A stretch of DNA of 64,000 nucleotides from Parcubacteria group bacterium Gr01-1014_31. GTDB lineage: Bacteria; Patescibacteriota; Patescibacteriia; Buchananbacterales; GWA2-38-13. The translations under genes were made by a program, and so were the position numbers. Positions within the stretch are counted from its first letter, which is position 1. Every line of letters starts with the position of its first letter. Under the pieces are notes generated by a model. It saw nothing but the letters and a program-made list of their open reading frames with translations, did no database searches and had not been told where the DNA came from. This document shows, in pieces, positions 10,379 through 62,609 of the stretch. Location of the stretch: NCBI GenBank assembly GCA_007376135.1, contig VMFR01000002.1:92870-156869 (forward strand), read 5' to 3'.

Positions 10379-10381
10379 AAA

Positions 10382-10429
10382 GAATTACTACAGATTGTAG
10401 TTAGTGTTTACTACAATCTGTAGTAATTC
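10382..10429. promoter_or_regulatory. BlaI/CopY-type operator: 20-bp perfect inverted repeat containing TACAnnnTGTA boxes
   Basis: GAATTACTACAGATTGTAGT .. 8 nt .. ACTACAATCTGTAGTAATTC. Each arm itself contains ACTACAgatTGTAGT. Sits immediately upstream of the repressor gene start, consistent with autoregulation. Confidence 0.6.
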
Positions 10430-10607
10430 TTACAAGGAGTCAAGCAAAGTTATCCACACGAAATCTTGATGCCAAGGCCGCGCACCAGTTCTCGCCGTAA
10501 TTCACCCAACCACAACACAATCGGATGCCAATGGCACAGAATGTTTCTCTACCCGCCCGATTTCCTGATGCAAATTTGCAGGTGATCCCATCCTCCCGCG
10601 CGCCGTT

Positions 10608-11453: not shown

Positions 11454-11539
11454 ACTGATGATAGTTACTTGGATAATTTAGATCTCCCTCGCGAGCGGAG
11501 AGGGAGGCTCAAAAAATCATATAGGAGTAACCCCCAGGG

Positions 11540-11624
11540 CGGAGAGGGAGGGATTCGAACCCTCGAACCCTTGCGGGTTACCGCATTTCGAGTGCGGCGC
11601 ACTAGTCCACTATGCGACCTCTCC
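11540..11624 (-). tRNA. tRNA-Ser (anticodon CGA)
   Basis: Minus-strand GGAGAGGTCGCATAGTGGACTAGTGCGCCGCACTCGAAATGCGGTAACCCGCAAGGGTTCGAGGGTTCGAATCCCTCCCTCTCCG. 7-bp acceptor stem, anticodon loop CUCGAAA, long variable arm, GTTCGAATC T-loop. CCA not encoded. Confidence 0.85.
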
Positions 11625-11942
11625 GCTCTGGGGGTTAAAAAACATTTGGACGACCGGATATACCAGCACAAGTATGCGCGAATGGCATTACCCGCGGACC
11701 CCGCACCAATTTTGCACCAGGGAGACGGCCCCGCCATTCGGCGGGGTAAACTCCGCGCTGCGCCCTAAACGGGGAGGGCCTATTCGTCCAGCCCATTCCG
11801 CGAATGAGCTGGATTATTTCCGTACCTTTCTTTATTGTCCCACCCGCACACGTGCGGGCGTTCTGGAGGACGGAAAGTAAAATTATGCTATACTGAAAAA
11901 AGCTAAAAGTCAACGAAAAAAGGCTGAACCTCCTTATTTCTT

Positions 11943-14924: not shown

Positions 14925-15029
14925 TACTGTGTTTTCCTTTGCATTTTGCTTGAAACATAGCAGAATAATGCGGCTGGAACCGGGCGGGTGACCGCTTGGC
15001 GCCGGCAGCACTCGGAAGGGGGTGAAACA

Positions 15030-15395
15030 ATGAAAAAAATTACTACAGGGATTGCTACGGCCGCGGGGCTGATCGCAGCACTGCCGGTCTTCGCCCAGCT
15101 CCCGGCGACGGTTAACCAGGGGTTAGCCTACTCGACGATCGTCGGCTGGGGTACCCAGGACCTTCGTACGACCATCATGCTCGTGATCAACATCATCATG
15201 GGCTTCCTGGGAATTATCGCCGTTATCATCATTCTCACCGGTGGATTCAAGTGGATGACCGCCGGCGGCAACGAGGAGAAGGTAGCGGAGTCCAAGAAGC
15301 TGATCATCGCTGGTATCGTTGGTTTGGCAATTATCTTTGGCGCCTACGCGATCGCGTCGTTCGTCATCAGTTCGCTGGTGAACGCCACGACCTAG
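15030..15395 (+). CDS. VirB2/TrbC-like pilin (T4SS-pilin family), probable major subunit; paralog 2
   Basis: 121 aa. Signal peptide ...ALPVFAQ, short mature N-terminus, TM1 IMGFLGIIAVIIILTGGFKWMTAGGNEEKVAESKKLIIAGIVGLAIIFGAYAIASFVI (TM2). Start moved to the internal MKK with a good SD. Own promoter and terminator. Confidence 0.7.
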   Translation: MKKITTGIATAAGLIAALPVFAQLPATVNQGLAYSTIVGWGTQDLRTTIMLVINIIMGFLGIIAVIIILTGGFKWMTAGGNEEKVAESKKLIIAGIVGLAIIFGAYAIASFVISSLVNATT

Positions 15396-15420
15396 TTCGC
15401 AAGACTCCACAGAGGCAAAG

Positions 15421-15445
15421 GGCCCCGCTCGGCGGGGTCTTTTGT
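15421..15445 (+). terminator. rho-independent terminator after pilin paralog 2
   Basis: GGCCCCGCTCGGCGGGGTC hairpin followed by TTTTGTT. Confidence 0.5.
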
Positions 15446-15481
15446 TACGCCCGGCCGGTGGCGTTCGGGCCGCTGCTGCGA

Positions 15482-15487
15482 TATAAT
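15482..15487 (+). promoter_or_regulatory. candidate -10 element (TATAAT) for the pilin 3-8 operon
   Basis: GCTGCGATATAATGG lies 20 nt upstream of ATG 15508. No good -35 was found, so support is weak. Confidence 0.3.
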
Positions 15488-15507
15488 GGGTTCATCACTT
15501 TTTCCCC

Positions 15508-15903
15508 ATGCGCCGCCGATCTGCCGCCATTGTTCTGACCCTCCTGCTGGGTGTTGCGCTGGCGACGCCGATTTCTGCGGCGTTGGCCCAGGGTGACGAC
15601 TACGGCCTGAACGAAACCTATACCGCCGCCACCGGGGAGCAACCGCCCGCGAACCCCGACCCCCTGCCTCAAACCCTTGGGCTCATCATCAACTGGACGC
15701 TCGGGCTGCTGGGCTTTGTTTTCCTGATGCTCATGATCTGGGCCGGCATCGGCTGGATGACGGCCGGCGGCAACGAGGAGAAGGTGACGAAAGCGAAAAC
15801 GATGATCAACGCTGCCATCGCCGGTATGGTCGTGGTCTTCATTTCCTACGCGCTGGCCGACGCTATCGTTGCCGCGCTGTCGGCGGCGTCCAATACCGGC
15901 TAG
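15508..15903 (+). CDS. VirB2/TrbC-like pilin family protein; paralog 3
   Basis: 131 aa. Signal peptide ...AALAQ. Conserved LMLMIWAGIGWMTAGGNEEKVTKAKTMINAAIAGMVVVFISYALA. The 30-nt core is nearly identical to paralog 2. Confidence 0.7.
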   Translation: MRRRSAAIVLTLLLGVALATPISAALAQGDDYGLNETYTAATGEQPPANPDPLPQTLGLIINWTLGLLGFVFLMLMIWAGIGWMTAGGNEEKVTKAKTMINAAIAGMVVVFISYALADAIVAALSAASNTG

Positions 15904-15911
15904 CTCTCCCT

Positions 15912-16319
15912 ATGCGCCCTCCCCGGCAACTCATTGCCCACACCGCCGCCGGCTTGCTGGTGTTCCCCGGCGCCGCCTTGGCCCAGAACGAATATCGCGG
16001 CATCGGCAAGGTCATCAACAAAGCGATGCGCGACACGGCGCTGTTCGCGGGGTTCATCCCCGAGAGCGGCCAGCCGCGCAACTTCATGCAGATCATGGGC
16101 GCCTACACCAACGGCATCATCACTTTTCTCGGCCTCATTTTCCTGGTGCTCATCATCTGGGCCGGCTTCAAGTGGATGACGGCCGCCGGCAATGAAGACC
16201 AGGTCACCAAGGCGCGCGGCTACATCAAGAATGCCGCCATCGGGCTGACCATCATCCTGGTGGCGCGGATGATCACCTACCTGCTGCTGGAGATCATCCA
16301 GCCCGCCGTCACGCCATAG
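15912..16319 (+). CDS. VirB2/TrbC-like pilin family protein; paralog 4
   Basis: 135 aa. ...AALAQ signal. LVLIIWAGFKWMTAAGNEDQVTKARGYIKNAAIGLTIILVARMITY. 8-nt gap from paralog 3, no SD. Confidence 0.7.
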   Translation: MRPPRQLIAHTAAGLLVFPGAALAQNEYRGIGKVINKAMRDTALFAGFIPESGQPRNFMQIMGAYTNGIITFLGLIFLVLIIWAGFKWMTAAGNEDQVTKARGYIKNAAIGLTIILVARMITYLLLEIIQPAVTP

Positions 16320-16322
16320 CCT

Positions 16323-16727
16323 ATGCACGCAAAAATCCCCTCGCTTCCCCGCTGGCTGGCTGCCGCCGTGGCGCTGGCGCCAAGCGCGGCGCTGGCACAA
16401 ACGACCCGCAGCGCGGGCGGGCTGTTCGCTAACATCCGCTCCAACATTGAAACATCGGGTATCATGCCGGGCACGGCCACCGACGCACAGCAGGTCATCG
16501 GTGGCATCATCACCGGCGTCATCGGGCTGCTGGGCGTCATTTTCTTCATCCTCATTCTCTACGGCGGGTACCTGTGGATGACGGCGCGCGGCAATGAGCA
16601 GCAGATAGAAAAAGCCAAGGACATCATCAAATCCTCCAGCATCGGGCTGGCGGTCGTGCTGGGCGCCTACCTCATCACGTTCATCGTGGTGCAGCTGCTC
16701 ATCAGCCAGACGCTAACGTCGCTGTAG
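16323..16727 (+). CDS. VirB2/TrbC-like pilin family protein; paralog 5
   Basis: 134 aa. ...AALAQ signal. ILILYGGYLWMTARGNEQQIEKAKDIIKSSSIGLAVVLGAYLITF. 3-nt gap from paralog 4. Confidence 0.7.
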   Translation: MHAKIPSLPRWLAAAVALAPSAALAQTTRSAGGLFANIRSNIETSGIMPGTATDAQQVIGGIITGVIGLLGVIFFILILYGGYLWMTARGNEQQIEKAKDIIKSSSIGLAVVLGAYLITFIVVQLLISQTLTSL

Positions 16728-16731
16728 ACCT

Positions 16732-17148
16732 ATGCGCCGTAATTTCTCTACCTGGGCGTGGACGGCGGCGGGAATCGCAGCGGGCTTGCCCATGCCGGTG
16801 CTGGCGCAGACGCGCAACACTATTATGGGCCGCCTCATCAACACGGCGTCCATGTTTGGCCCGTTCCAAACCATCGACAATGAGCCGGGCGCAGGACTGC
16901 GGCAGGCGGCGCGTATCATCGGCCTTATCATCGGCAGCTTGCTCGCATTCTTGGGCATCGTGTTCATGCTCCTCATGATAACGTCGGGCATCCGTTGGAT
17001 GACGGCGCGCGGCAATGAGACGGAAATTGAAAAAGCCAAAGAAACCATCAAGAGCGCCGCCATCGGGCTGCTGGTGGTCGTGCTCTCCTACGCCTTTGTG
17101 ACCCTCATCAGCCGGATGGTGGTAGACACCGGCCTGCTACGCGGATAG
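16732..17148 (+). CDS. VirB2/TrbC-like pilin family protein; paralog 6
   Basis: 138 aa. ...PVLAQ signal. LLMITSGIRWMTARGNETEIEKAKETIKSAAIGLLVVVLSYAFVTL. Confidence 0.7.
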   Translation: MRRNFSTWAWTAAGIAAGLPMPVLAQTRNTIMGRLINTASMFGPFQTIDNEPGAGLRQAARIIGLIIGSLLAFLGIVFMLLMITSGIRWMTARGNETEIEKAKETIKSAAIGLLVVVLSYAFVTLISRMVVDTGLLRG

Positions 17149-17159
17149 TTTTTCTCCCT

Positions 17160-17543
17160 ATGTCGCATCGCTTTGCTTCGTGGACGAAAGGGCTGGCGGC
17201 CGCTCTGGCGCTCTTGCCCTACCGCGTGCTGGCGCAGGCCCCGCCGCTGTTCGGGCCGGGCAGCCTGGTGAACGAAACCTGCGAAGGCGCCGGGTTCAAC
17301 TGCAGCGAGCGCGACGAGACGTTCTTTGCCGAGGCGCTGGGCTCCGTCGTGTTCGCGCTGCTGTCGTTCACCGGCCTGGTATTCACCGCGCTCATCCTGT
17401 ACGGCGGGTATCACTGGATGCTGGCGCGCGGCAACGAGTCCGAGATCGACAAAGCCAAGTCCATCATCCGTTCGGCCATCATCGGGCTGGTCGTCACCCT
17501 GGCGTCCTACTCGGTGTGGATCGCCATCTCCTACTTTATCTAA
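17160..17543 (+). CDS. VirB2/TrbC-like pilin family protein; paralog 7
   Basis: 127 aa. ...RVLAQ signal. Mature N-terminus has CEGAGFNC. ALILYGGYHWMLARGNESEIDKAKSIIRSAIIGLVVTLASY. Confidence 0.7.
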   Translation: MSHRFASWTKGLAAALALLPYRVLAQAPPLFGPGSLVNETCEGAGFNCSERDETFFAEALGSVVFALLSFTGLVFTALILYGGYHWMLARGNESEIDKAKSIIRSAIIGLVVTLASYSVWIAISYFI

Positions 17544-17548
17544 CCACG

Positions 17549-17986
17549 ATGCGCCGCTTGACCTCCCGCGTGCTTCAAATCTTGGCCCCGCTGGTCGTAT
17601 TGTTCGCCACGGCGGCGCAGGCGCAAACCGGGCGCTTGCTGGGTGGCGGCCTGAGCGACCGGATGCGCGGCATCGCGGGGGTGTTTGCCCGCAACGTCGG
17701 GCTGCAGGAAACGCCGCTGTCGTTCGTCGTCGCGCGGGTCATCTTCATGTTCCTGGCCATCCTCGGCATCATTTTCGTCGGCCTCATCACCTACGCGGGC
17801 TACCACTGGCTGACCGCGCGCGGCAACGAGGAAAAGGTGCGCAAAGCCCAGGATACCCTGCGGCAGGCGACCTGGGGGCTCATCATTGTGCTGGCCGCCT
17901 ACTCCATTTCGTACTTCATCCTGGCGTACCTGCTGGGCGAATTCGGCACCGCCCCGCCGCCCCCGCTGACTGGCGGCGCAACATAA
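17549..17986 (+). CDS. VirB2/TrbC-like pilin family protein; paralog 8
   Basis: 145 aa from MRRLTSRVLQ... with ...AAQAQ signal. GLITYAGYHWLTARGNEEKVRKAQDTLRQATWGLIIVLAAYSISY. Pro-rich C-tail. The long track ORF 17180..17986 is an out-of-frame overlap of paralog 7; the real start is ATG 17549. Confidence 0.65.
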   Translation: MRRLTSRVLQILAPLVVLFATAAQAQTGRLLGGGLSDRMRGIAGVFARNVGLQETPLSFVVARVIFMFLAILGIIFVGLITYAGYHWLTARGNEEKVRKAQDTLRQATWGLIIVLAAYSISYFILAYLLGEFGTAPPPPLTGGAT

Positions 17987-18007
17987 TACAACCCGGCAAA
18001 AAGAAGA

Positions 18008-18040
18008 ACGGCGCAAAAGCATTGCCTTTGCGCCGTTTTC
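18008..18040. terminator. bidirectional terminator between the pilin operon and the convergent lipoprotein gene
   Basis: GGCGCAAAAGCATTGCCTTTGCGCC hairpin with T-run on the plus strand and A-run (T-run on the minus strand). Confidence 0.5.
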
Positions 18041-18066
18041 GAATCGAAGAACGATCCGCTTGCCCA

Positions 18067-18648
18067 CTACTTGGGCTTTACGCACGCCGCCCACTTCACG
18101 GTGCGCACCACGGTGGTTTCGTTGACCGTCTCGAAAACCACGTTCCCGCTGGCAGTCTCGATGAACCGGAAAAGATATTTATACCCCTCCGGTAACGAAC
18201 AGGCGACCGTGGTCGGCTCCACCTTGGGATTCGGCGCAGGAGCGAGGTTGACCACTTCCACGGTTGGACCGTTCAAGTTGATCCGACCTCGGTGATCGAC
18301 CTGGAAAACCTGGCAGACCAGGGCAAGACCGGTGAAATTACTGATGCCCCCATCCACCAAAATCATGGTGGGCTCCTCAGGCTTGGTGGCCTTGATCTGC
18401 TCGAGCTTGCGCTCGGCCAAATCGACGTCGCCCTCCTTGGCGTTGATGACCGCAGTTCGCGCGGCCGTCAGTTGGGAATTGTACTCCATCAACTCCGCCG
18501 CACGCATCGCCGTGATCGGGTCCGTTTCGCCAAACCACGCGTGAACCACGATCTTGGGATCGCGCTTGTCCTCCAACAACACATCGGAGGAACGGCAGCC
18601 GAACGCAGCGGCGAGCGGGAGGACAACCAACATCATCCGGTACGACAT
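18067..18648 (-). CDS. hypothetical lipoprotein
   Basis: 193 aa from MSYRMMLVVLPLAAAFGC (lipobox-like AFGC). No family recognised. The longer ORF to 18783 lacks a signal-peptide context. ATG complement at 18646-18648. Confidence 0.45.
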   Translation of the reverse strand: MSYRMMLVVLPLAAAFGCRSSDVLLEDKRDPKIVVHAWFGETDPITAMRAAELMEYNSQLTAARTAVINAKEGDVDLAERKLEQIKATKPEEPTMILVDGGISNFTGLALVCQVFQVDHRGRINLNGPTVEVVNLAPAPNPKVEPTTVACSLPEGYKYLFRFIETASGNVVFETVNETTVVRTVKWAACVKPK

Positions 18649-18915
18649 GTAAAGACTCCTGCCAGAAACTGGCGTTGTGGGACGCATTGTCCAAGGTTCA
18701 ACCGTATTAAGCCCCGGTGAAGGCTCCACAGCAGTGGAGAAAAGCCAAACATTGGCTTTTGACTTAAGATGTAATGATACCACAAATTGAAACTATTGTC
18801 AATATAATTAGCAATATTTGGCTTATTTTAGATGATTATAATCAATACTATATTACGCCCGCCAATGCTAATTCCCCTTGTTTCAGCCAACCCGGGAATC
18901 CTGTATAATGAACGT

Positions 18916-19025
18916 GGTATGCCCGGTAGTACAATGGATATACTGGGCAGAAGAGCGGTGCGGCAGTAATTAATTACGCTGGAACGCGAACACCAGTAAA
19001 CAACCATTGTCCTGCCGGGTATGCC
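18916..19025 (+). promoter_or_regulatory. conserved inverted-repeat 5' leader element (copy C); 3' arm contains the start codon of pilin paralog 9
   Basis: 5' arm GGTATGCCCGGTAGTACAATGG (18916-18937) and 3' arm CCATTGTCCTGCCGGGTATGCC (19004-19025) form a 22-bp stem (with G-U pairs) around an AT-rich core. An extended -10 TGTATAAT (18902-18909) is 6 nt upstream. The same architecture occurs at 55591-55691 and 60110-60224. Confidence 0.5.
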
Positions 19026-19431
19026 CATCGCAGAGCGCGTCGCCGTCAAACTCGCCCAGCTCTCCCCCGATATTCGGGAGTCGCAAGGGCCGCTGTGGCG
19101 CGCGATAAAGAACCAGTACACCCCGTTCAACCTGTTCTTCGGCCCGCCCTCCGACCCGCGCGTCGTGGCGGCGCTGGTCATCAAGGGGTTCATGTCGCTG
19201 CTGGGCATCTTGTTTTTGCTCTACGTGGTGTACGCGGGGTTCATGTGGATGACGGCCAACGGCGACGAGGAAAGGATCCGCAAGGCGAAATCCACCATCA
19301 CCACCGGCGCATTCGGGGTGCTGGTCATCCTGGCGGCGTACTCCATCGCCCAGTTCATCACCACGGCGTTCGGCTGCGCGACCGCCACCTACGGCGAGTG
19401 GTGCCTTTTCTTCAACAACCTGACGTGGTAG
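19021..19431 (+). CDS. divergent VirB2/TrbC-like pilin family protein without N-terminal signal peptide; paralog 9
   Basis: 136 aa. The conserved hairpin LLYVVYAGFMWMTANGDEERIRKAKSTITTGAFGVLVILAAYSIA is present, but the N-terminus MPIAERVAVKLAQLSPDIRES is not a signal peptide. C-terminal CATATYGEWC. Confidence 0.55.
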   Translation: MPIAERVAVKLAQLSPDIRESQGPLWRAIKNQYTPFNLFFGPPSDPRVVAALVIKGFMSLLGILFLLYVVYAGFMWMTANGDEERIRKAKSTITTGAFGVLVILAAYSIAQFITTAFGCATATYGEWCLFFNNLTW

Positions 19432-32685: not shown

Positions 32686-32872
32686 AACCGAGACGCGCGG
32701 AGCAACATCAGCACCGCCAGTGCGCCACTATGAAAAGGGGAAGCGCTGCCTTTATCCTAGCGGTCGGTTGCTGTCAACGCAACAGCGTTTTTACCGCCGA
32801 ATGGATTGCGCGGAATGGAAAAATATGGCATACTGACCGCTGCACATCACCGTTCATTCAGGTTGATTTTTT

Positions 32873-33586
32873 ATGTCAGGACACAGCAAATGGGCGACCA
32901 CCCACCGCGCCAAGAGCGCCGTGGATTCCAAGCGAGGAGCCGTCTTCACCAAACTGACGCGGGCGATCTCTTCGGCGGCGCGGAGCGGCGGCGGCAATCC
33001 GGAATCCAATTTCAAACTGCGGTTGGCCATGGACCAGGCGCGGGCGGCCAACATGCCCAAGGATAATATAGAACGCGCCATCGCCAAGGCGACCGGCCAG
33101 GGCGGCGACGTGCAGCTGGAGGCGGTCACCTACGAGGGCTTCGGCCCGCACGGCGTGGCTGTCATCGTCGAGTGCTTGACGGACAACCGGAACCGCACCA
33201 GCCACGAGATCCGCCACCTGTTCGAAGGACGGGGCGGCCACATCGGCACGCCCGGCAGCGTGGGCTGGCAATTCGAACGGACGGGCATCGTCACGACGGC
33301 AACCGTTTCCCCCGATGACGAGCTTGCCCTCATTGACTTGGGCGCATCGGACATCCGGCGCGACGACCGCGAGGTAACGGTCCTCTGCCCGCCCGCCCAA
33401 CTGGAGGCCGTACGGAAATTCTTCAACTCCCGGGGCGTGGCCGCGGAAGCCAAGCTGGGCCTACTACCGAAGGAGACCAAGCCGCTCGCCAGCGAAAAAG
33501 AAGTCGCCGACCTGCAGACGCTGCTCGACCAGCTCGACGACCACCCCGACGTCCAAGAATGCCATCATAATGCCGAAAGCCCGTGA
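32873..33586 (+). CDS. yebC: YebC/PmpR-family DNA-binding regulatory protein
   Basis: 237 aa starting MSGHSKWATTHRAKSAVDSKRG, a highly conserved YebC N-terminus. Confidence 0.85.
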   Translation: MSGHSKWATTHRAKSAVDSKRGAVFTKLTRAISSAARSGGGNPESNFKLRLAMDQARAANMPKDNIERAIAKATGQGGDVQLEAVTYEGFGPHGVAVIVECLTDNRNRTSHEIRHLFEGRGGHIGTPGSVGWQFERTGIVTTATVSPDDELALIDLGASDIRRDDREVTVLCPPAQLEAVRKFFNSRGVAAEAKLGLLPKETKPLASEKEVADLQTLLDQLDDHPDVQECHHNAESP

Positions 33587-33680
33587 ACCCCGTACCACAG
33601 GCTTATCCTCGGAGATTTACCTCATCGTCCCTCAGTTATGCTCATGGTATTTTGCGCGAGACATACGCGCGTAGTTTCCT

Positions 33681-34181
33681 GTGGTACGGGGTGAACGCAC
33701 CGTGCTGGGGATCGACCCGGGGCTGGCAACGACCGGCTTCGGCGTGCTGACGGTTGCCCCCGGCACCATCTCAGCCCAAGCCTTCGGCGTCATCCGAACC
33801 CCGGCGCACCGCCCGGATACCGAGCGCCTCGTTTCTATCCAGCGCGAACTCGAAGCGCTGATTTCTCGCTACCGACCCGACCTCGTGGCCGTCGAAAAAC
33901 TTTTCTTCAACACCAACACCACCACCGCGATGGCCGTCTCGCAGGCGCGCGGGGCGGTACTGGCGGTCTGCGGTGCGGCGCACCTGCCCCTCCGGGAGTG
34001 CACGCCGCTCGAGGTCAAGCAGGCGGTGACCGGCTACGGCCGCGCCGACAAAGGCCAGATGCAGCGGATGGTCGCGCTGCTGCTGAAACTCAAGGAAATC
34101 CCGCGCCCGGATGATGCGGCCGACGCGCTGGCCGTGGCCATCTGCGGCGCGCAGACCAAAGTTTGGGGAGAGAACCGCTGA
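33681..34181 (+). CDS. ruvC: crossover junction endodeoxyribonuclease RuvC
   Basis: 166 aa. VLGIDPGLATTGFGVL catalytic Asp region and overall RuvC length. Confidence 0.85.
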   Translation: MVRGERTVLGIDPGLATTGFGVLTVAPGTISAQAFGVIRTPAHRPDTERLVSIQRELEALISRYRPDLVAVEKLFFNTNTTTAMAVSQARGAVLAVCGAAHLPLRECTPLEVKQAVTGYGRADKGQMQRMVALLLKLKEIPRPDDAADALAVAICGAQTKVWGENR

Positions 34182-34185
34182 ATCT

Positions 34186-35244
34186 ATGTCGTACCGCATC
34201 GCCTTGCTCGCCACGCCTTGGGAAGCGGTACCGCCCCCGAAGTACGGCGGCACGGAACTGATCGTCGCCAACCTCGCGGATGAACTCACCCGCCGCGGCC
34301 ATACCGTCACGGTGTTTGCCACCGGCGACTCGCGTCCCGCTGGCCGCCTGGCGGCGGTGTTCCCCCGCGCGCTCTACCGCGACGGCGTCCCCTGGAACGA
34401 CACGCTGCGCCCGCTGCAACACGTCGCTGCCTGTTTCACCCGCGCCCGCGAGTTCGACCTCATCCACAACCATGCCAACTACTTCGGCCTGCTGTTCGCG
34501 AACCTGGTGCCAACCCCGGTGGTCACCACCTACCATGGCGACTTTGTGACCGCGGAAAAGATCCCGGAAAAACGGCACCTGCTGGAGGCGTTCCGTCGCG
34601 CTCCGTTCGTTGCCATCAGCTGGCGCCAACGCGCCCTGGCAAAAACCCGCCTCAATTTCGTCGGTACCGTTCACAACGGCATCGCCATTGAACAGTTCCC
34701 TTTTTCGCCGCGGCCCGGCAACTACCTGTGCTGGCTAGGACGCATCACCGAAAAAAAAGGGATCCTTGAAGCCATCACGGTCGCCCGTCGGCTGCGCCTG
34801 CCGCTGAAGATCGGCGCCAAGATCGACCCGGTCGACCGCGCGTTCTTCAAACACCGCGTGGAGCGCCGCATCGACGGCAAACATATCCAATACCTGGGAG
34901 AGCTGGACCACCGCGGAAAAACCCGGCTGCTGAAAAGGGCGCTCGCGCTCTTGAACCCCATCACCTGGGAGGAACCATTCGGCCTGGTCATGGCGGAGGC
35001 GATGGCCTGCGGCACGCCGGTTATCGCCTTCCCCCGCGGCGCGGCTCCCGAGATCGTTGCCGATGGAGTGACGGGCTACCTGCCCACCACGGTGGACCGC
35101 ATGGTGGCCGCGGTCAAACGCATCCACCATATCCGGCGTAGCGCCTGCCGTGCCCGCGCAGCGCGATACTTCAGCCGGGAAGCGATGACTGACGGCTACG
35201 AGAAGATCTACGCGCGAGTACTGCGACGGGAAAAAGGCCGATAA
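34186..35244 (+). CDS. GT4-family glycosyltransferase (retaining, GT-B fold)
   Basis: 352 aa from MSYRIALLATPWEAVPPPKYGGTELIV. C-terminal EX7E-type region EEPFGLVMAEAMACGTPVIAF. Start placed at ATG 34186, just after the ruvC stop. Confidence 0.8.
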   Translation: MSYRIALLATPWEAVPPPKYGGTELIVANLADELTRRGHTVTVFATGDSRPAGRLAAVFPRALYRDGVPWNDTLRPLQHVAACFTRAREFDLIHNHANYFGLLFANLVPTPVVTTYHGDFVTAEKIPEKRHLLEAFRRAPFVAISWRQRALAKTRLNFVGTVHNGIAIEQFPFSPRPGNYLCWLGRITEKKGILEAITVARRLRLPLKIGAKIDPVDRAFFKHRVERRIDGKHIQYLGELDHRGKTRLLKRALALLNPITWEEPFGLVMAEAMACGTPVIAFPRGAAPEIVADGVTGYLPTTVDRMVAAVKRIHHIRRSACRARAARYFSREAMTDGYEKIYARVLRREKGR

Positions 35245-35291
35245 CTCAACACCCTGTTCCCCTCCGCCTAATTCCTATCTTTCACCGCGAT

Positions 35292-36509
35292 ATGCCCCAG
35301 CCGCTGAGAATACTATTTTTGCACCACTTCCCGTTGTGGGGCTGCGGCAGCGGCACGTTCGTGCGCAACCTCGCTATCCGATTGTCCGGCAAACAAGAGA
35401 TCGCCATCGCCTGCCCGGAAACCCGCACGGTCGAGGGCGTCAAACTCTACCCCATCAAGCTGCCGTTCTTCGCCTCGTTCACCGGCCATCCGGAACACCC
35501 GAACAGCAAACTCTATGCGGAGCTATCGCCCGGGGAGATCACGCAGCTGTACCGGGCGTTCCTGCACTACGCGGTGGACGCGGTGGAGAATTTCCGGCCC
35601 CACATCATCCACGCCAACCACGCCGGCGTGCTGACGTGGGCGGCGCGCTACCTCTACGCCATCTACGGCATCCCGTACCTGGTCACCATCCACGGCACCG
35701 ATCTGCACAACATCGACCTCGACCGCCGCTACTGGCACCTGTCGCGCGACGCCGTCAAAGCCGCGCGGCAGATCACGTGCGTGTCCGGCGATACGCGGGC
35801 ATGGTTCTACCGCATCTTCGGGGGCGAGGACAAGCTTCGCGCCAAGATCCGCACCATCCCCGCGGGCATCAACTTGGCCGATTACGACCGGACCCTGAGC
35901 ACCGACGACCTGGACGCCAAGTACAAACTGACCGGACGTCCGGTGGTCATGTTCGCCGGCAAGCTGACGCCCTACAAGGGAGTGCGCTACCTGGTCAAAG
36001 CAGCGCGCTGGATCAACGGCGAGGTGGTCATCATCGGCGATGGGCCGGAACTCCACACGCTCACGGACCTCGCGCGCGACCTGAAGGTCTCGAACGTGCG
36101 GTTCTTGGGTCACTTCGGAAAAAAGGATGACCTCTGGCTGCACAAATTCTATCAGCGGGCAGACGTGTTCGTGGCGCCGTCGGTCTGGGATGAGCCGCTG
36201 GGCATGGTCATCCTGGAAGCCATGGCCTACGGCACGCCGGTGGTGGTCACCCGCAAGGGCGGCATCCCGCTGGCGGTGAAAGACGGCGTCAACGGCCGCT
36301 TCATCAAGCCGCGCAACAGCCACGACATCGCCGACAAGGTCAATGCGCTCTTGGCCGACCCCGCGCGGCGGCGGCAACTGGGCGAACAGGCCCGGCAGGT
36401 GGTGGAGGAGAAATTCACCTGGGACAAGATCGCCGAGAAGTTCCTACAGATCTACCGGGCGCGGGCCGCGGGAGGCAACGGAAAGAACGGCAAAACCGAT
36501 CGCACCTAG
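35292..36509 (+). CDS. GT4-family glycosyltransferase
   Basis: 405 aa. DEPLGMVILEAMAYGTPVVVT and GT-B fold pattern. Distinct subfamily from its four neighbours. Confidence 0.8.
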   Translation: MPQPLRILFLHHFPLWGCGSGTFVRNLAIRLSGKQEIAIACPETRTVEGVKLYPIKLPFFASFTGHPEHPNSKLYAELSPGEITQLYRAFLHYAVDAVENFRPHIIHANHAGVLTWAARYLYAIYGIPYLVTIHGTDLHNIDLDRRYWHLSRDAVKAARQITCVSGDTRAWFYRIFGGEDKLRAKIRTIPAGINLADYDRTLSTDDLDAKYKLTGRPVVMFAGKLTPYKGVRYLVKAARWINGEVVIIGDGPELHTLTDLARDLKVSNVRFLGHFGKKDDLWLHKFYQRADVFVAPSVWDEPLGMVILEAMAYGTPVVVTRKGGIPLAVKDGVNGRFIKPRNSHDIADKVNALLADPARRRQLGEQARQVVEEKFTWDKIAEKFLQIYRARAAGGNGKNGKTDRT

Positions 36510-36598
36510 CCCGGACAACATTGGGGAGAAACGACGGCCGTCAAGGCCGTCTTTTTCGCGCCTTCGACCGGTAAATAATGGTATACTGAAGCCGTCCT

Positions 36599-37657
36599 AT
36601 GTCCCGCACGCGACGGCCCCGCATCGCAATTATCGCTCCATTCTTCCTGCCCATTCCGCCGCGGCGGCAAGGCGGTACGGAATGGATCGTTGCCCATCAG
36701 GCCGACGGCTTGGTGGACCGCGGCTATCCCGTCACCCTCCTGGCGGTCGCGGGATCCACCACGCGCGCCCGGCTCATTCCCGTCATTACGCGCGGCGTGA
36801 GCGACTACCCACTGCGGCTGGACTCCATGGAGGCGTCACGGAAATTACGGCTGGAAATGACGGCGCTTGGATTGGCCGCCGAGCACCTGCGCCAGAACCG
36901 CTTCGACCTGGTCTTCAACCATGCCCGCGGCGGCGAGCTGCTCTACCCGCTGTTGCGGCAGATGGGGGTGCCCATGGTCACCGTGCTGCACCTGCCGGTG
37001 TTCAGTGAAAACGCAAAATTCCTGGCCGGACAACGAGCGCCGCTGGTCTCTATCAGCAACCATGAACGGCGGGCCTTTCCGCGACTCAATTATGTCGCGA
37101 CCGTGTACAATGGTGTGAACACCAAAACGTTCTCCTTCAACGCCAAACCCCGCGATTACCTGCTGATGATGACCACCATCGGCGAACATAAAAATACGCT
37201 CGATGGGATCGTGGCGGCAAAACGCGCGCGCCGAAAGCTGATCATCGCCGGCAAGATCCGCGACCATGCCTACTTTGCCGCCAAGATCAAACCGCGCCTG
37301 GACGGCCGAACGGTGCGCTACCTCGGCGAGGTCGGGCTCAAGGAAAAGATCCGGCTCTACCGCAACGCCAGTGCACTCCTGTTCCCGGTGGTCTGGGAAG
37401 AACCATTCGGCTTGGTGATGATCGAATCACTCTCCTGCGGCACGCCGGTTGTAGGCTACCGGAGCGGCGCCGTGCCGGAGGTTATCCGTCACGGCATCAC
37501 GGGTTTCATCACGCCGAAAACTCCGGCTGCGTTGGCCCAAGCCATCCGCCGCCTTCCCGAGATCGACCGCGCCGCGTGCCGGCACGACGCGGTACGACGT
37601 TTTTCGCTCGACCGCATGCTCGACGGCTACGAAAAGGTCATCCATCATCTCATTTGA
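36599..37657 (+). CDS. GT4-family glycosyltransferase
   Basis: 352 aa. APFFLPIPPRRQGGTEWIV N-terminus and EEPFGLVMIESLSCGTPVVGY. Confidence 0.8.
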   Translation: MSRTRRPRIAIIAPFFLPIPPRRQGGTEWIVAHQADGLVDRGYPVTLLAVAGSTTRARLIPVITRGVSDYPLRLDSMEASRKLRLEMTALGLAAEHLRQNRFDLVFNHARGGELLYPLLRQMGVPMVTVLHLPVFSENAKFLAGQRAPLVSISNHERRAFPRLNYVATVYNGVNTKTFSFNAKPRDYLLMMTTIGEHKNTLDGIVAAKRARRKLIIAGKIRDHAYFAAKIKPRLDGRTVRYLGEVGLKEKIRLYRNASALLFPVVWEEPFGLVMIESLSCGTPVVGYRSGAVPEVIRHGITGFITPKTPAALAQAIRRLPEIDRAACRHDAVRRFSLDRMLDGYEKVIHHLI

Positions 37658-37659
37658 AT

Positions 37660-38733
37660 ATGAAGAGATTGAAGATCGCGCAGATCGCGCCCCTCTGGAT
37701 CCGAGTGCCGCCCGAAAAGTACGGCGGCACGGAGCTCATCGTCTACCACCTGTGCGAAGAATTGGTTGCCCGCGGCCACAAGGTGACGCTCTTTGCCTCG
37801 GGCAATTCGAAAACTTCGGCGAAATTGGTGCCGGGGTTCCGCACCAATTTATTGGCCGCCGGCATCCCATGGACCAGCCAGCTGGAAACGCTGCGCCATC
37901 TCGCGCAAGCCTACGCGCGCAGCGGCGAATTCGACCTGGTGCACTCGCACGTCGACCTGTATGAGACGTTCTTCGCGCGCTTCTCCCGCGCGCCAGTGGT
38001 GCACACCATCCACAACCCGCTGTATTCGTCGCGCAAAGACGACCTGCGGCTGCAGATCCTCACGAACAGCCGGTGGTCGCATTATGTGACCATCTCCAAT
38101 TCGCAGTATCGGCTCGGCTCGGCTCACCTCAACCGCGCGGGCACCGTGTACAACGGCATCGATATTTCGAAGTTCCGATATATCAAAAAAGGCGGCGACC
38201 ACTTCATCTGGATCGCGCGCGTTGACCCCTACAAAGGTATTGAGAACGCAATCACGGCCTGCGAACGGGCTCACGTCAAGTTGACCCTGGCTGGCCGGCT
38301 GGATGCGACGCGGCGGCAGTACTTTCGCCAGCGCATCCGCCCGCACCTCAGGCACGGTATCCGTTGGGAAGGCGAGATCGGCGGCAGCCAGAAGAACGCG
38401 TTCTTCGGCTCGGCTCAGGCGCTGCTCTACCCGATCGAGTGGCACGAACCGTTCGGCCTGGTCATGGTGGAAGCCATGGCCTGCGGCACGCCGGTCATCG
38501 CCTACGACCGCGGCTCGGTGCGGGAGCTGGTCAAAGACGGCGTGACCGGGTTTGTGGTGAACACCATCCCGGAAATGGTACGGGCCATCAAAAAGGTGGG
38601 CGCCATCGACCGCGCCGCCTGCCGCGCCTGGGTGGAGAAAAAATTCACGGTGCAAACGATGGTGGACGGCTATGAACGAGTATACGAACGGATCTTAAGT
38701 CAACGTACGAAAGGTAAAGGGCGGAATTCTTGA
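37660..38733 (+). CDS. GT4-family glycosyltransferase
   Basis: 357 aa from MKRLKIAQIAPLWIRVPPEKYGGTELIV (ATG 37660, 3 nt after the previous stop). C-terminal roughly 45 aa identical to the GT4 at 39732..40865. Confidence 0.8.
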   Translation: MKRLKIAQIAPLWIRVPPEKYGGTELIVYHLCEELVARGHKVTLFASGNSKTSAKLVPGFRTNLLAAGIPWTSQLETLRHLAQAYARSGEFDLVHSHVDLYETFFARFSRAPVVHTIHNPLYSSRKDDLRLQILTNSRWSHYVTISNSQYRLGSAHLNRAGTVYNGIDISKFRYIKKGGDHFIWIARVDPYKGIENAITACERAHVKLTLAGRLDATRRQYFRQRIRPHLRHGIRWEGEIGGSQKNAFFGSAQALLYPIEWHEPFGLVMVEAMACGTPVIAYDRGSVRELVKDGVTGFVVNTIPEMVRAIKKVGAIDRAACRAWVEKKFTVQTMVDGYERVYERILSQRTKGKGRNS

Positions 38734-39720
38734 ATGAGTATGGTACCCCCCGGCAACATCCTTATCCCGCGCATCGGCGAAAAGATCGCCGCCGTGCTGC
38801 GGCGGCACAAACTGCGCCCCGAGGTCAGTCCGAAAAAATTCTTGGCGCGCGTCAAAACCAGCAAGCACCGCTACTTCACTCCGGCCCGAACGCCCGAGGG
38901 AACGACGGTGGCATTCTATGCGCGGCTCCACGCCAACCCCGACGCGCAACGGAAATTCCTGACCGAAGTCAGCGTCCTGCGACGGCTCAACCGGATGCCG
39001 CAGCCGTTCGCCCGCTCGGCGCCGCGGCTGCTGTCGGCCGGACGGGAATCCTCATTCGAATGGTTCACCCGCGAGCACATCAACGGCAACCCGCTGGGCC
39101 ACAGCCGCCACTTATCCGGACGGCTGGCTGCCTCCACGGTGGCGCAGCTGGCCTCCTCCATCGTTTCCATCGGCCAACTGCCGCCCAAGGAGCTGCGGGT
39201 CAAACTGCAGCGGTTCAATCCCGATAACTACCGCATCGACCGCCAGTGCTACGGGCTGGCCCAAGCGGCAGCGGTACCGGCGACCACCTGCCGCGGCGTC
39301 GGCCGCCTGGTTTCGAACAATCGCCAGCTACTGCATCGCTGCAACCGGGTGGTCGCGCACGGCGACCTGAATTTAGGCAACATCCTGGTGGACGGCGGGA
39401 TCGTGCGCATCGTGGATTGGGAACTGGCTCAGCTCAACAACTTGGCCTACGACCTGGGGTATTTGTGGGTTCATCTCTGGGAAGCTCCCAAACGCTTCCG
39501 CCAGCTCCTGCTGCAATCATTTGTCCGGCAGTTGCCGTCGCCGCAGCGCGCCCTCTTCCGCCAGCTCCTGCCGGTGGTGGTCGCGTACCTGGCGATCGGC
39601 GGCATCCCCTACCGGAGGAGCGCGCATGAACGCCACGCCGAACAGGAACGGCGGCGGCGCTACCATGTTCGGTTGCTGCAGCAATGCCTGCACGGCTTTT
39701 CCGCCCTGCGGAACGCCTAA
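38734..39720 (+). CDS. aminoglycoside-phosphotransferase (APH)-fold kinase, possible sugar (anomeric) kinase
   Basis: 328 aa. Catalytic loop HGDLNLGNILV and IVDWE (Brenner and DxD motifs of the APH/choline-kinase fold). Embedded in a glycosyltransferase/sugar-nucleotide cluster. Confidence 0.55.
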   Translation: MSMVPPGNILIPRIGEKIAAVLRRHKLRPEVSPKKFLARVKTSKHRYFTPARTPEGTTVAFYARLHANPDAQRKFLTEVSVLRRLNRMPQPFARSAPRLLSAGRESSFEWFTREHINGNPLGHSRHLSGRLAASTVAQLASSIVSIGQLPPKELRVKLQRFNPDNYRIDRQCYGLAQAAAVPATTCRGVGRLVSNNRQLLHRCNRVVAHGDLNLGNILVDGGIVRIVDWELAQLNNLAYDLGYLWVHLWEAPKRFRQLLLQSFVRQLPSPQRALFRQLLPVVVAYLAIGGIPYRRSAHERHAEQERRRRYHVRLLQQCLHGFSALRNA

Positions 39721-39731
39721 CGCCAACGCCT

Positions 39732-40865
39732 ATGTCGAAACGATTGCGCATCGCGATGTTCTGCACCAACGAGTGGCAAACGCCGCCGCCCCAGAACACG
39801 TTCTACGCGCCGTTGTGGATCGCCCAGGCCATCGCCGAAGGATTGCATCGCCGCGGCCACCGCATAACGTACTTCGGCGCCCGCGGCTCCACGCTGCGCG
39901 CCCCGCTGGCGCACCTGAACATGCCCGCCATCAAAACCAACCGTCAACTCAAACCGTTCCTCGCTCGGCAGAATGAAACGGTGGTGAACTTCTACGAACA
40001 GTTGATGATCGCCGAGATCTACCGGCGTGCCAACCGCGGCGATTTCGACCTCATCCACATCCACCCCTACCGGCGGGCCATCCAGTTCGCGCCCCTCACG
40101 CAAACGCCCACGGTCATTACCCTGCACGATCCGATCGAGGACTTCCGCCGCTACATGCTGCAGCAGACGGTGACGCAACGGAACACGCACCTCATCTCCA
40201 TCAGCAACGCCCAGCGGAAACCCGCTCCGCGGCTCAACTTCGCGGCCACGGTCTACAACGGCGTACGCCTCGCCGACTACCCCTTCAACCCCGCGCCGGG
40301 CAACCACCTCGTCGCGGCTGGACGCTTCGTACCGGAAAAAGGCATCGACGTGGCCGTCCAGGTGGCGGCGCTCGCCAAAACTCCGCTGCGGCTGGCGGGC
40401 GGACAGGCCGAGGGGCACTACTGGGACGCTTACATCAAACCCTACGTGCGGCCGCGCGGCCGAACCCGCTACGTGGGGATGCTGAAGTCCCGGGAGATGG
40501 GCAAATTCTACGGCTCCGGTCGAGCACTTCTCTACCCGCTGCGCTGGGAGGAACCGTTCGGCCTGGTGATGGTGGAGGCTATGGCCTGCGGCACGCCGGT
40601 CATCGCGTTCCCGCACGGCTCGGTGCGGGAGCTGGTCAAAGACGGCGTGACCGGGTTTGTGGTGCACACCATCCCGGAAATGGTACGGGCCATCAAAAAG
40701 GTGGGCGCCATCGACCGCGCCGCCTGCCGCGCCTGGGTGGAGAAAAAATTCAGCACGGAAAAAATGGTCGATGGATACGAAAATGCCTTCTACGACATTC
40801 TCACGCAAGAACGACGGAGTGCAAAACGCAAAATGCAAAACGCAAAACAACAACGCAAAAAATAA
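39732..40865 (+). CDS. GT4-family glycosyltransferase
   Basis: 377 aa from MSKRLRIAMFCT. EEPFGLVMVEAMACGTPVIAFPHGSVRELVKDGVTGFVVHTIPEMVRAIKKVGAIDRAACRAWVEKKF. Lys-rich tail. Confidence 0.8.
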   Translation: MSKRLRIAMFCTNEWQTPPPQNTFYAPLWIAQAIAEGLHRRGHRITYFGARGSTLRAPLAHLNMPAIKTNRQLKPFLARQNETVVNFYEQLMIAEIYRRANRGDFDLIHIHPYRRAIQFAPLTQTPTVITLHDPIEDFRRYMLQQTVTQRNTHLISISNAQRKPAPRLNFAATVYNGVRLADYPFNPAPGNHLVAAGRFVPEKGIDVAVQVAALAKTPLRLAGGQAEGHYWDAYIKPYVRPRGRTRYVGMLKSREMGKFYGSGRALLYPLRWEEPFGLVMVEAMACGTPVIAFPHGSVRELVKDGVTGFVVHTIPEMVRAIKKVGAIDRAACRAWVEKKFSTEKMVDGYENAFYDILTQERRSAKRKMQNAKQQRKK

Positions 40866-54193: not shown

Positions 54194-54201
54194 TATTGGC
54201 C

Positions 54202-54239
54202 ATAAAGAAAACACCCGCGGCCGCGGGTGTTTTCTTTAT
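54202..54239. terminator. bidirectional terminator: 17-bp perfect palindrome
   Basis: ATAAAGAAAACACCCGCGGCCGCGGGTGTTTTCTTTAT between convergent yidC and the lipid-kinase gene. Confidence 0.6.
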
Positions 54240-54243
54240 GGTT

Positions 54244-55535: not shown

Positions 55536-55564
55536 TTGACAGCAAAAACGTTTTCGCGTATGCT
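55536..55564 (+). promoter_or_regulatory. candidate sigma70-type promoter for rpsT (TTGACA-17-TATGCT)
   Basis: TTGACA at 55536-55541, 17-nt spacer, TATGCT at 55559-55564. About 125 nt upstream of the rpsT ATG. Confidence 0.4.
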
Positions 55565-55590
55565 GTCGACTATTCTTACCGCCTCTGCCC

Positions 55591-55691
55591 GGTAGGACAA
55601 CGGGCTGGCGAGGTAGAGGTATAAACCCGACTGAGAATTATAGCGTCGTACCGCGAAGATTACACATTTGACCGTTGTCCTACCGGGTATG
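55591..55691 (+). promoter_or_regulatory. conserved inverted-repeat 5' leader element (copy A); 3' arm ends in the rpsT start codon
   Basis: GGTAGGACAACGG (55591-55603) pairs perfectly with CCGTTGTCCTACC (55672-55684), followed by GGGTATGCC with ATG at 55689. A 68-nt lower-GC core lies between the arms. Confidence 0.5.
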
Positions 55692-55979: not shown

Positions 55980-56004
55980 TCACCCCCGTTTCCCGGGGGT
56001 GTTT
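55980..56004. terminator. bidirectional terminator between rpsT and holA
   Basis: CACCCCCGTTTCCCGGGGGTG hairpin followed by TTTT. Confidence 0.5.
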
Positions 56005-60109: not shown

Positions 60110-60224
60110 GGTATGCTCGGTAGGACAACGGATCTCACGGAGCAAGGCATACGATACACGGATTAATTATTTTTTGGTCCTAAACGCAATTACTCCATTC
60201 GGCCGTTGTACTACCGGGTATGCA
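60110..60224 (+). promoter_or_regulatory. conserved inverted-repeat 5' leader element (copy B); 3' arm contains the smc start codon
   Basis: GGTATGCTCGGTAGGACAACGG (60110-60131) and CCGTTGTACTACCGGGTATGCA (60203-60224, ATG at 60220). The ACAACGG/CCGTTGT pair carries a compensatory change relative to copy C (ACAATGG/CCATTGT). Confidence 0.5.
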
Positions 60225-62502: not shown

Positions 62503-62541
62503 CGGAATACTAAGTAGTAAGTTCTAAGAAACTTTTGGTTC

Positions 62542-62570
62542 TTGACTTTTCTTCCCCTTTCCGATAATCT
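62542..62570 (+). promoter_or_regulatory. candidate promoter for rpsP (TTGACT-17-TAATCT), bracketed by a 19-bp inverted repeat
   Basis: TTGACT at 62542-62547, 17-nt spacer, TAATCT at 62565-62570. Flanked by CTAAGTAGTAAGTTCTAAG (62510-62528) and its inverse CTTAGAACTTAGTACTTAG (62579-62597). Confidence 0.4.
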
Positions 62571-62609
62571 GCATAGCACTTAGAACTTAGTACTTAGCAC
62601 TGTCCGAAA

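Follow-up and report, generated by a model that had tools for sequence, protein, structure and literature searches.

The rpsT locus and its leader

We analysed 64,000 nucleotides of contig VMFR01000002.1 (positions 92,870 to 156,869 of the forward strand; hereafter, the window) from the assembly GCA_007376135.1 of Parcubacteria group bacterium Gr01-1014_31, focusing on a palindromic element, copy A, which lies between the promoter and the start codon of rpsT, the gene of ribosomal protein S20. Two related elements, copies B and C, were found in the same window (Table 1). The best matches of the SMC protein and the presence of a PF18895 pilin array place the organism among the Patescibacteria, or candidate phyla radiation (CPR).

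The initial annotation regarded copy A as a structured leader and took the ATG at 55689 for the S20 start. This start was confirmed, as the 88-aa open reading frame (ORF) matches the Pfam family Ribosomal_S20p and its N-terminus MPIK is common to S20 orthologues. It is also correct that S20 and a pilin of the window both begin with MPI, a coincidence explained by the TATGCC start context, which is common across the genome. The promoter was found where it had been described, with 10/12 consensus matches against 0.3 expected in the consensus scan, and the distance from its -10 box to the 13-bp arm of copy A is 26 nt. Its -35/-10 architecture is kept in four rpsT orthologues from relatives (L017-L020), all of which lack the element of copy A; the promoter is that of the host gene and does not belong to the element. 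The two perfect 13-bp arms previously reported (GGTAGGACAACGG, 55591-55603, and CCGTTGTCCTACC, 55672-55684) are indeed present, but the perfect repeat is longer, comprising 16 bp. Their proposed extension by G-U pairing holds as well: in the RNA, copy A gains one G.U and one U-A pair, which brings the helix to 18 bp, and the outermost of these pairs (U-A) uses the A of the rpsT AUG. Since both the promoter and the structure directly against the rpsT start are real, the hairpin is almost certainly transcribed as a part of the rpsT 5' untranslated region (UTR).

In strain-level contigs of the window organism (L002-L005), an insertion sequence that codes for a 302-aa transposase with an rve domain takes the place of the DNA 5' of rpsT as far as the -35 box, so that the bactofilin gene no longer neighbours rpsT. 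The rpsT promoter and copy A are unchanged in these contigs despite the replacement upstream.

Table 1. Positions of the rpsT locus features and of the other insertions and target sites in the window.
Feature	Position	Strand	Remarks
Native rpsT promoter TTGACA-17-TATGCT	55536..55564	+	Promoter scan; same -35/-10 layout in L017-L020
Native short rpsT leader, kept 5' of the insertion	55565..55583	+	Alignable to the leader of L017, an orthologue with an empty site (gccaactatcctccattgctcc)
Copy A, 5' target-site duplication, TATG decayed to TCTG	55584..55587	+	One substitution, also in the sister genome
Copy A, 5' terminal inverted repeat CCCGGTAGGACAACGG	55588..55603	+	16 nt, 100% complementary
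Copy A, 68-nt interior (loop)	55604..55671	+	5' half purine-rich, 3' half AT-rich
Copy A, 3' terminal inverted repeat CCGTTGTCCTACCGGG	55672..55687	+	16 nt, 100% complementary
Copy A, 3' target-site duplication TATG	55688..55691	+	Contains ATG 55689, the rpsT start codon
rpsT, ribosomal protein S20, 88 aa	55689..55955	+	Pfam Ribosomal_S20p match
Intrinsic-terminator-like hairpin 3' of rpsT	55981-56001		
Copy B	60112..60222	+	TATG + CTCGGTAGGACAACGG ... CCGTTGTACTACCGGG + TATG; ATG 60220 starts smc; repeat-to-repeat 60116-60218
Copy C	18918..19023	+	TATG + CCCGGTAGTACAATGG ... CCATTGTCCTGCCGGG + TATG; ATG 19021 starts a T4SS_pilin (PF18895) paralogue; repeat-to-repeat 18922-19019
Empty target site TATG, start of the 538-aa membrane-protein gene	32692..32695	-	Sister genome carries the element exactly here
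Second palindromic insertion family	33584-33695		Between yebC and ruvC; repeat and TGAA duplication; single copy in all collected sequence

Filled and empty insertion sites

Orthologous sites with and without the element were compared between the window and a metagenome-assembled genome (MAG), 'bacterium E14_metabat.bin.16' (JAUSGZ01, GCA_030648715.1; hereafter, the sister MAG), with which the window shares 88-89% nucleotide identity across syntenic blocks. At smc, the sister MAG is empty and has a single TATG (CTGGTATGCATTTAG; in a longer context, ...CCCTATCTGGTATGCATTTAGAATCC), whereas the window is filled and reads CTGG-TATG-[element]-TATG-CATTTAG (in a longer context, ...CCCTATCTGG-TATG-[CTCGGTAGG...CTACCGGG]-TATG-CATTTAGAATCC). 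A plain TATG start without the element is also found in the smc gene of a more distant relative (70% identical). Because the site is empty in the sister MAG, copy B is, judging from this alignment, a recent insertion. The opposite arrangement was observed at the gene of a 538-aa membrane protein, which in the window retains an empty site with a single TATG (GGTTATGCCATTT; longer, ...CGGTTATGCCATTT) and in the sister MAG is filled (...CTGT-TATG-[TCCGGTAG...CTACCGGA]-TATG-CCGTTT). For rpsT, empty leaders are provided by the relatives L017, L019 and L020, the S20 proteins of which are 83%, 70% and 69% identical, respectively, to that of the window: the promoter (TTGACA/TTGACT-17-TAYNNT) is kept there and is followed by a pyrimidine-rich leader of 23-31 nt before the (T)ATGCC.

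The flanks of the element over ten loci are TATG/TATG in seven cases, CATG/CATG in one and differ by one base in two, so that identical YATG is found on both sides at 8/10 loci. Copy A itself has the flanks TCTG/TATG, and the TCTG change, being common to the sister MAG, is old. At least three insertions differ between the window and the ~88%-identical sister MAG, two of them belonging to this family and one to a second family described below; the copies at rpsT, tpiA and fba have been retained across the split of ~12% nucleotide divergence. The family thus displays terminal inverted repeats, a target duplication, small size without a transposase gene, and dispersed copies with presence/absence differences, which are the features of miniature inverted-repeat transposable elements (MITEs). 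We consider it likely that copy A is a non-autonomous element of MITE type, about 100 bp long, with 16-bp terminal repeats, a diverged interior of ~68 nt devoid of an ORF and a 4-bp YATG duplication. Read from the alignments above, copy A is shown to have entered the TATG that held the rpsT start, the duplication having rebuilt the ATG on the 3' side and the promoter and leader having stayed on the 5' side; the same event took place at nine other genes.

Two further observations were made at insertion sites of the same loci. In the sister MAG (L010:2745-2787, minus strand) the tpiA ORF (268 aa) continues across the CATG duplication and the repeat on the 5' side of the copy at fba and stops at a TAA in the loop of that copy, and therefore this insertion rewrote the C-terminus of TpiA (…NP-MPGSTTDRSNTAI*). 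In the relative L018, the S20 of which is 79% identical, the rpsT leader contains an imperfect palindromic insert of ~113 nt (L018:2228-2346), distinct from the window family, with repeated GGACGTCA motifs, an inverted repeat GTCGGACGTCAA / TTGACGTCCGAC and ATGCCC flanks on both sides. It is positioned, as copy A is, between the rpsT promoter and the ATG, which suggests repeated insertion at the rpsT start codon within the clade.

Copies, fronted genes and distribution of the element

Altogether, 14 copies at 10 distinct loci were collected, three copies being located in the 64-kb window and seven in the sister MAG. The 13-mer of the arms with its near-matches occurs in the window seven times against 1.4 expected. 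The same 16-bp terminal repeat (CCCGGTAGKACAAYGG), with zero to three variable positions, is present in 14/14 copies, and the repeat-to-repeat length is 98-103 bp; the repeats are near-identical and the interiors ~50% diverged between loci. The genes fronted are rpsT, smc, a T4SS pilin gene, tpiA, fba, fpg, a DJ-1-like gene and three genes of membrane or unknown proteins, and at all ten loci a genuine ORF of 88-760 aa opens at the ATG directly 3' of the 3' repeat. The initial annotation had cautioned that smc and a pilin gene are preceded by the element too, which proved to be the correct lead, and the label 'pilin' used there is right in the type-IV-secretion sense (PF18895). Copy C is borne only by the last member of a tandem array of about nine small paralogous T4SS_pilin genes (PF18895; TrbC/VirB2-like) occupying 14961-19431.

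A pattern scan for the two arms, in which any base was allowed at the three variable positions, matched one MAG among 185,579 species genomes, namely the sister MAG. Among metagenomes, the scan retrieved two unrelated marine contigs and, from one sample, four contigs that are almost identical to the window organism. Viral-contig and plasmid collections contained no match to the element, and a covariance model built from the 14 copies revealed no further copies in 123 kb of collected sequence. The element is confined to one narrow lineage, that is, the window species, the sister MAG and one metagenome. The marine contigs (L012:749-861 and L014:50-162, GC 48%) harbour an unrelated element of 80-92 nt with inverted repeats, in each arm of which the 13-mer of the window family is doubled in tandem (GGTAGGACAATGG GTAGGACAATG...); it was retrieved solely through the search pattern, and both coincidence and distant relationship to the window family are possible.

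These data bear on the proposal of the initial annotation that the hairpin is a leader through which S20 represses its own translation. In Escherichia coli S20 is translationally autoregulated, and the position of the hairpin, abutting the rpsT start 3' of the rpsT promoter, would suit such a role. However, the rpsT leaders of L017, L019 and L020 are devoid of the element, near-identical arms front nine unrelated genes, and the element has no counterpart in Rfam: at the gathering threshold of Rfam 15 the whole window gave one match, a tRNA, and none in the element, and at a permissive threshold the element region gave mir-5918 alone (15.9 bits vs a cut-off of 69, E = 1.8), a chance match of a miRNA-precursor hairpin. 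On this comparative evidence, the hairpin is not an S20-specific operator, and we regard binding and repression by S20 as extremely improbable. A false lead is thereby removed, and the three look-alike 'leaders' of the window are given a single cause.

Interior of the element

The interior was inspected for signals of its own. RNAalifold analysis of the 14 copies revealed no conserved structure inside it, and no Shine-Dalgarno-like motif was found within the element at a fixed distance from the ATG. The duplicated 5' ATG is intact in its native context at 8/10 loci, the exceptions being the mutated ATGs of the rpsT copy and of one tpiA copy; the frame that it opens stops after 7-28 codons, in the loop, at 10/10 loci, and there is no long ORF. 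A conserved leader peptide was rejected, as the mini-ORF varies in length and sequence and its AUG is mutated in the two copies just mentioned.

A further possibility is that the element is a portable cassette of promoter and 5' UTR, comparable to Neisseria REP2 or to the outward promoters of Correia elements, with the mRNA starting in the AT-rich 3' half of the loop, without the 5' arm, so that the hairpin would never form. The interior is directional, its 3' half being AT-rich; a hexamer resembling AATTAT or GATAAT occurs ~46 nt 5' of the ATG in about half of the copies; in the sister MAG the element lies between tightly packed operon genes (memb10-tpiA-fba), where a new promoter could be useful; and such a cassette would account for the tolerance of the insertion by essential genes. 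On the other hand, no copy exceeds 8/12 matches to a sigma-70 promoter, the consensus scan detected nothing inside copies A, B and C, the positions of the candidate hexamers are not shared by all copies, and the native promoter is intact 5' of copy A. We thus consider this explanation quite unlikely.

The predicted RNA helix

The RNA of copy A is predicted to fold with -44 kcal/mol (z = -4.2), none of 200 shuffles being as stable. Over the family, the helices comprise 18-20 bp with energies from -33 to -52 kcal/mol, and z-scores of the three window copies range from -3.9 to -5.1. The consensus structure of the 14 copies (RNAalifold) consists of the outer helix alone, with 19-20 pairs, in which the AUG pairs with the upstream UAU(G). 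The closing pairs at the AUG are U.G, A-U, U-A and G.U: as UAUG is self-complementary with two wobble pairs, the duplication adds four weak pairs and is the source of the G.U pairs at the helix end. For the same reason an asymmetry of G.U pairs was discarded as a proof of function in the sense-strand RNA, since most of them originate from the UAUG duplication, and the rest amount to ~4 wobble vs 2 A.C independent events. In two copies the upstream TATG is mutated (to TCTG at rpsT and to TAGG at one tpiA), with the loss of AUG pairing, which looks like amelioration.

Between orthologous copies the repeats have changed at 5/128 positions vs 15/273 in the interior, and several of the repeat changes break pairs. 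Pairing is observed in 93.9% of the helix cells vs 93.6% in shuffles, and the covariation score alone stands out (reached in 4/500 shuffles). Repeats that change as fast as the interior, together with weak covariation, fit conservation of the repeats by transposition better than a structurally selected RNA. The simplest reading of these comparisons is that the repeat sequence is conserved along the transposition-competent lineage and that inserted copies drift.

Choice of the start codon, orientation and competing explanations

Among the predicted starts of the window, T is found at position -1 in 34/52 and TATGC in 19/52, so that starts in this genome usually read TATG. The regions upstream of the gene starts are pyrimidine-rich (e.g., TTTCTATG), and Shine-Dalgarno-like motifs are rare, which suggests Shine-Dalgarno-independent initiation in the window organism. 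Over the ten loci no extended target consensus was found beyond YATG, save C at +4 in 9/10. Non-coding TATG sites of the window, counted on both strands with a crude gene call, number ~61 elsewhere vs 34 at starts. Comparison of non-orthologous interiors demonstrated that they are more alike sense-to-sense than sense-to-antisense (Wilcoxon p = 2e-5). As for stop codons as a cause of an orientation bias, the sense mini-ORFs stop in the loop at 10/10 loci vs 6/10 in the hypothetical flipped orientation, which is a trend only.

Several of our observations weigh against the interpretation of copy A as a MITE. All ten insertions are on genuine start codons, though only ~36% of the non-coding TATG sites of the window are starts; this exceeds availability with p of roughly 4e-5 to 1e-3, according to the extent of over-calling of non-coding DNA, the background gene calls being crude and the known loci being ten. 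Nine of the ten loci share one interior orientation, the fpg copy being ambiguous or flipped in the leave-one-out comparison. As plain random insertion predicts neither pattern, either unusual targeting or host selection must act. The element persists at the essential and highly expressed rpsT, tpiA and fba, which is hard to reconcile with a purely harmful hairpin at the start. Selection on pairing is conceivable, as compensatory double changes occur at three positions of the helix: columns 10/117 and 23/104 changed from C-G to U-A, the latter in two independent loci, and columns 18/109 from G-C to U-A. Finally, neither an autonomous insertion sequence with matching repeats, nor a solitary repeat, nor a pair spaced as in an insertion sequence was found in the window and the collected loci.

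A rival explanation is a domesticated translational operator, by now selected by the host whatever the origin of the hairpin and common to a gene set as a mobile cis-regulatory 'regulon tag', at which one trans-acting factor (a double-stranded RNA-binding protein, RNase III or a helicase) opens or cleaves the helix to license translation. Its expectations agree with the exact placement of all ten copies on start codons, above the availability of TATG, with the shared interior orientation, with near-identical repeats around diverged interiors, with the compensatory changes and with the retention of the rpsT, tpiA and fba copies; Neisseria REP2, a repeat that defines a co-regulated gene set, offers a precedent (PMC3184786). 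Yet the fronted genes have no obvious functional coherence, their orthologues in the sister genome do without the element, the repeats evolve no slower than the interior after insertion, with several changes breaking pairs, covariation is little above that of shuffles, and the commonest state at helix position 18/109, one of those with a double change, is a mismatch (10/14 copies). In our opinion, a domesticated operator is unlikely; in its favour are the exclusive placement at start codons and the long retention at rpsT, tpiA and fba.

An action of the element as a DNA-level site, be it a pair of operators, an invertible promoter switch, an integron attC-like site or a REPIN mobilised by RAYT, was also considered. 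Conservation of the arm sequence itself, beyond complementarity, the GTAG/CTAC motifs of the arms, reminiscent of REP heads, and the tolerance of a mismatch at a fixed arm position are compatible with such a site. The element, however, holds a constant position with respect to the ATG but not to promoters, its spacing from the -10 box ranging from ~8 to ~26 nt; arm-to-arm spacing varies by 5 bp, target duplications are present, which neither REPIN/RAYT nor attC produce, and the neighbours are housekeeping genes, not cassettes. The interior of copy A had one and the same orientation throughout a limited sample, which comprised five contigs at strain level, the sister MAG, another MAG-like strain and one contig from a metagenome. 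On account of the target duplication, the housekeeping genes nearby and the constant orientation, we rejected attC, REPIN, invertible switch and paired operator, and a DNA-level role in general appears highly improbable to us.

Comparison with known repeat families

Among described systems, the Correia elements of Neisseria (CREE/NEMIS; PMC2649163, PMC3184786), the archetype of bacterial MITEs with effects at the RNA level, come closest to the window family in their likely mode of action. They resemble it in their size of ~100-150 bp, terminal inverted repeats, target duplication and lack of a transposase, as well as in many gene-adjacent copies with presence/absence differences between related genomes. 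Binding or cleavage by RNase III and creation of promoters have been described for them (PMC2649163). The long hairpin of Correia elements is co-transcribed and is bound or cleaved by RNase III; in the window family hairpin and co-transcription are predicted, and the resemblance is functional only. Correia elements differ in having a TA duplication, unrelated 26-bp repeats, an IHF site and promoters generated by their ends, and they are not confined to start codons, whereas in the window family the duplication is YATG, the repeats are 16-mers, all copies are located at start codons, the AUG is part of the predicted helix and the host is of the Patescibacteria type. Membership in the Correia family was rejected on the grounds of the YATG duplication in place of TA, the unrelated 16-mer repeats and a host other than Neisseria.

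Neisseria REP2 and the upstream repeats of Borrelia (PMC3184786) resemble the window family in position: they are likewise ~100-150 bp long, abut ORFs and supply a 5' UTR and ATG to unrelated genes. In contrast to the window family, which possesses terminal repeats and a target duplication, uses the host promoter upstream and has no convincing internal promoter or Shine-Dalgarno sequence, REP2 lacks terminal inverted repeats and carries a promoter and a ribosome-binding site of its own. A REP2-like nature was dismissed in view of the terminal repeats, of the best internal sigma-70 match of 8/12 in any copy, not positionally conserved, and of the missing Shine-Dalgarno-like motif at a fixed position. 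Nezha of cyanobacteria, ERIC and RUP (PMC3184786) share with the window family terminal repeats, direct-repeat flanks, a stable predicted hairpin and the occurrence of empty and filled sites; Nezha differs in that its parent insertion sequence with matching repeats is known (PMC3184786).

REP/REPIN sequences mobilised by RAYT are similar in forming a hairpin-forming doublet of ~100 bp with GTAG/CTAC near the ends, multicopy in non-coding DNA. They differ in that the target site is not duplicated, a single REP already forms a small hairpin, and their usual location is at the 3' ends of genes. Assignment to REPIN/RAYT failed on the demonstrated 4-bp duplication and on single arms that are not self-complementary. 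Autoregulatory leaders of ribosomal proteins (E. coli rpsT and the Rfam r-protein leaders) share with copy A a structured RNA beside the start codon, but they are gene-specific and conserved among orthologues; the window family is neither and has no Rfam family. Full-text searches of a paper library for MITEs in Patescibacteria and for start-codon-associated bacterial MITEs yielded nothing describing such a system. To our knowledge, the Nezha, ERIC and RUP families have no reported start-codon target. We regard the window family as a new family of MITEs that has recently been mobile in a CPR lineage and the start-codon target of which is unusual.

Possible consequences for expression

Transcription from the rpsT promoter would carry the whole element into the 5' UTR, where the repeats and the quasi-palindromic UAUG duplication would form a helix of 18-20 bp ending at the AUG. 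This helix would take the place of an unstructured, pyrimidine-rich and Shine-Dalgarno-poor leader, and initiation should be lowered or become conditional; the insertion thus probably affects translation. Of the routes by which rpsT could still be expressed, we rank first initiation at the weakest, fraying end of the helix, where the AUG is located; in the old rpsT copy the TCTG would leave only the A of the AUG paired. The second route is cleavage by RNase III, as in the Correia elements of Neisseria, which would release an mRNA with a short leader; a helix of about two turns is a classical substrate of this enzyme. As the third route, ribosomes coming from the duplicated upstream AUG or from an upstream gene, as would apply to the fba copy of the sister MAG, may melt the helix.

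A more speculative extension, which we hold to be rather unlikely, presents the family as a start-codon-homing MITE whose self-compensating insertion has turned into a translation-coupled switch. The (U)AUG duplication would give the native leader an upstream AUG with a mini-ORF, the real AUG being at the other foot of the helix. Ribosomes that load at the upstream AUG or come from the preceding gene would hold the helix open and thereby permit initiation at the real AUG; once translation capacity falls, the helix would close, both AUGs would be hidden and an RNase III site would be exposed. Were this true, the switch would represent a mobile 'translate only while translating' device spreading through the housekeeping genes of a CPR bacterium with a reduced genome.

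Irrespective of the mode of expression, the analysis documents recently active elements of MITE type in the Patescibacteria/CPR lineage, with unusual target behaviour: all known copies occupy start codons, the ATG is restored by the duplication, and an essential gene is placed behind a predicted 20-bp helix. A mechanistic basis of the start-codon specificity would imply a new kind of target choice for a transposon with terminal inverted repeats, and a selective basis would imply an ongoing recruitment of the elements as modules of translation control. Orthologous pairs of filled and empty sites (at smc, the membrane-protein gene and rpsT) constitute natural isogenic-like controls, with which the influence of a hairpin at the start codon on expression is directly testable in a Shine-Dalgarno-poor organism.

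Other repeats and palindromes

The second palindromic insertion family has the repeat CCCCGTACCACAGG at 33588-33601 and 33678-33691 with a 76-nt interior, and its repeat begins with CCC like that of the first family. It is flanked by TGAA on both sides, the left TGA being the stop codon of yebC; ruvC starts with GTG at 33702. The insertion is present in the window and absent in the sister MAG, which has the empty site CCCG-TGAG-CGCACC.

Downstream of smc, between its stop codon and the start of rpsP at 62611, an AT-rich inverted repeat of 19-23 nt (CTAAGTAGTAAGTTCTAAG / CTTAGAACTTAGTACTTAG, 50-nt spacer) occupies 62510-62597 (also L022:12311-12406) and is conserved in the sister MAG. Its spacer holds TTGACT-15-GATAAT, which, owing to the 15-nt spacing, was not called by the promoter scan. 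The tRNA-Ser(CGA) gene (11537-11625, minus strand) lies inside a 20-nt inverted repeat, 95% complementary, at 11528-11637, which lengthens the acceptor stem by ~12 nt into both flanks and would result in an unusually long precursor helix. Perfect palindromes were revealed at 54200-54241 and 10380-10431, one of them consisting of overlapping 24-nt arms between the convergent yidC and DAGK genes and the other being a 22-bp hairpin with an 8-nt loop; they are probably bidirectional or strong terminators. Diverged direct repeats D2, D3, D5 and D6 (62-87% identical) are located at 34200-40800 within a cluster of repeated paralogous genes.

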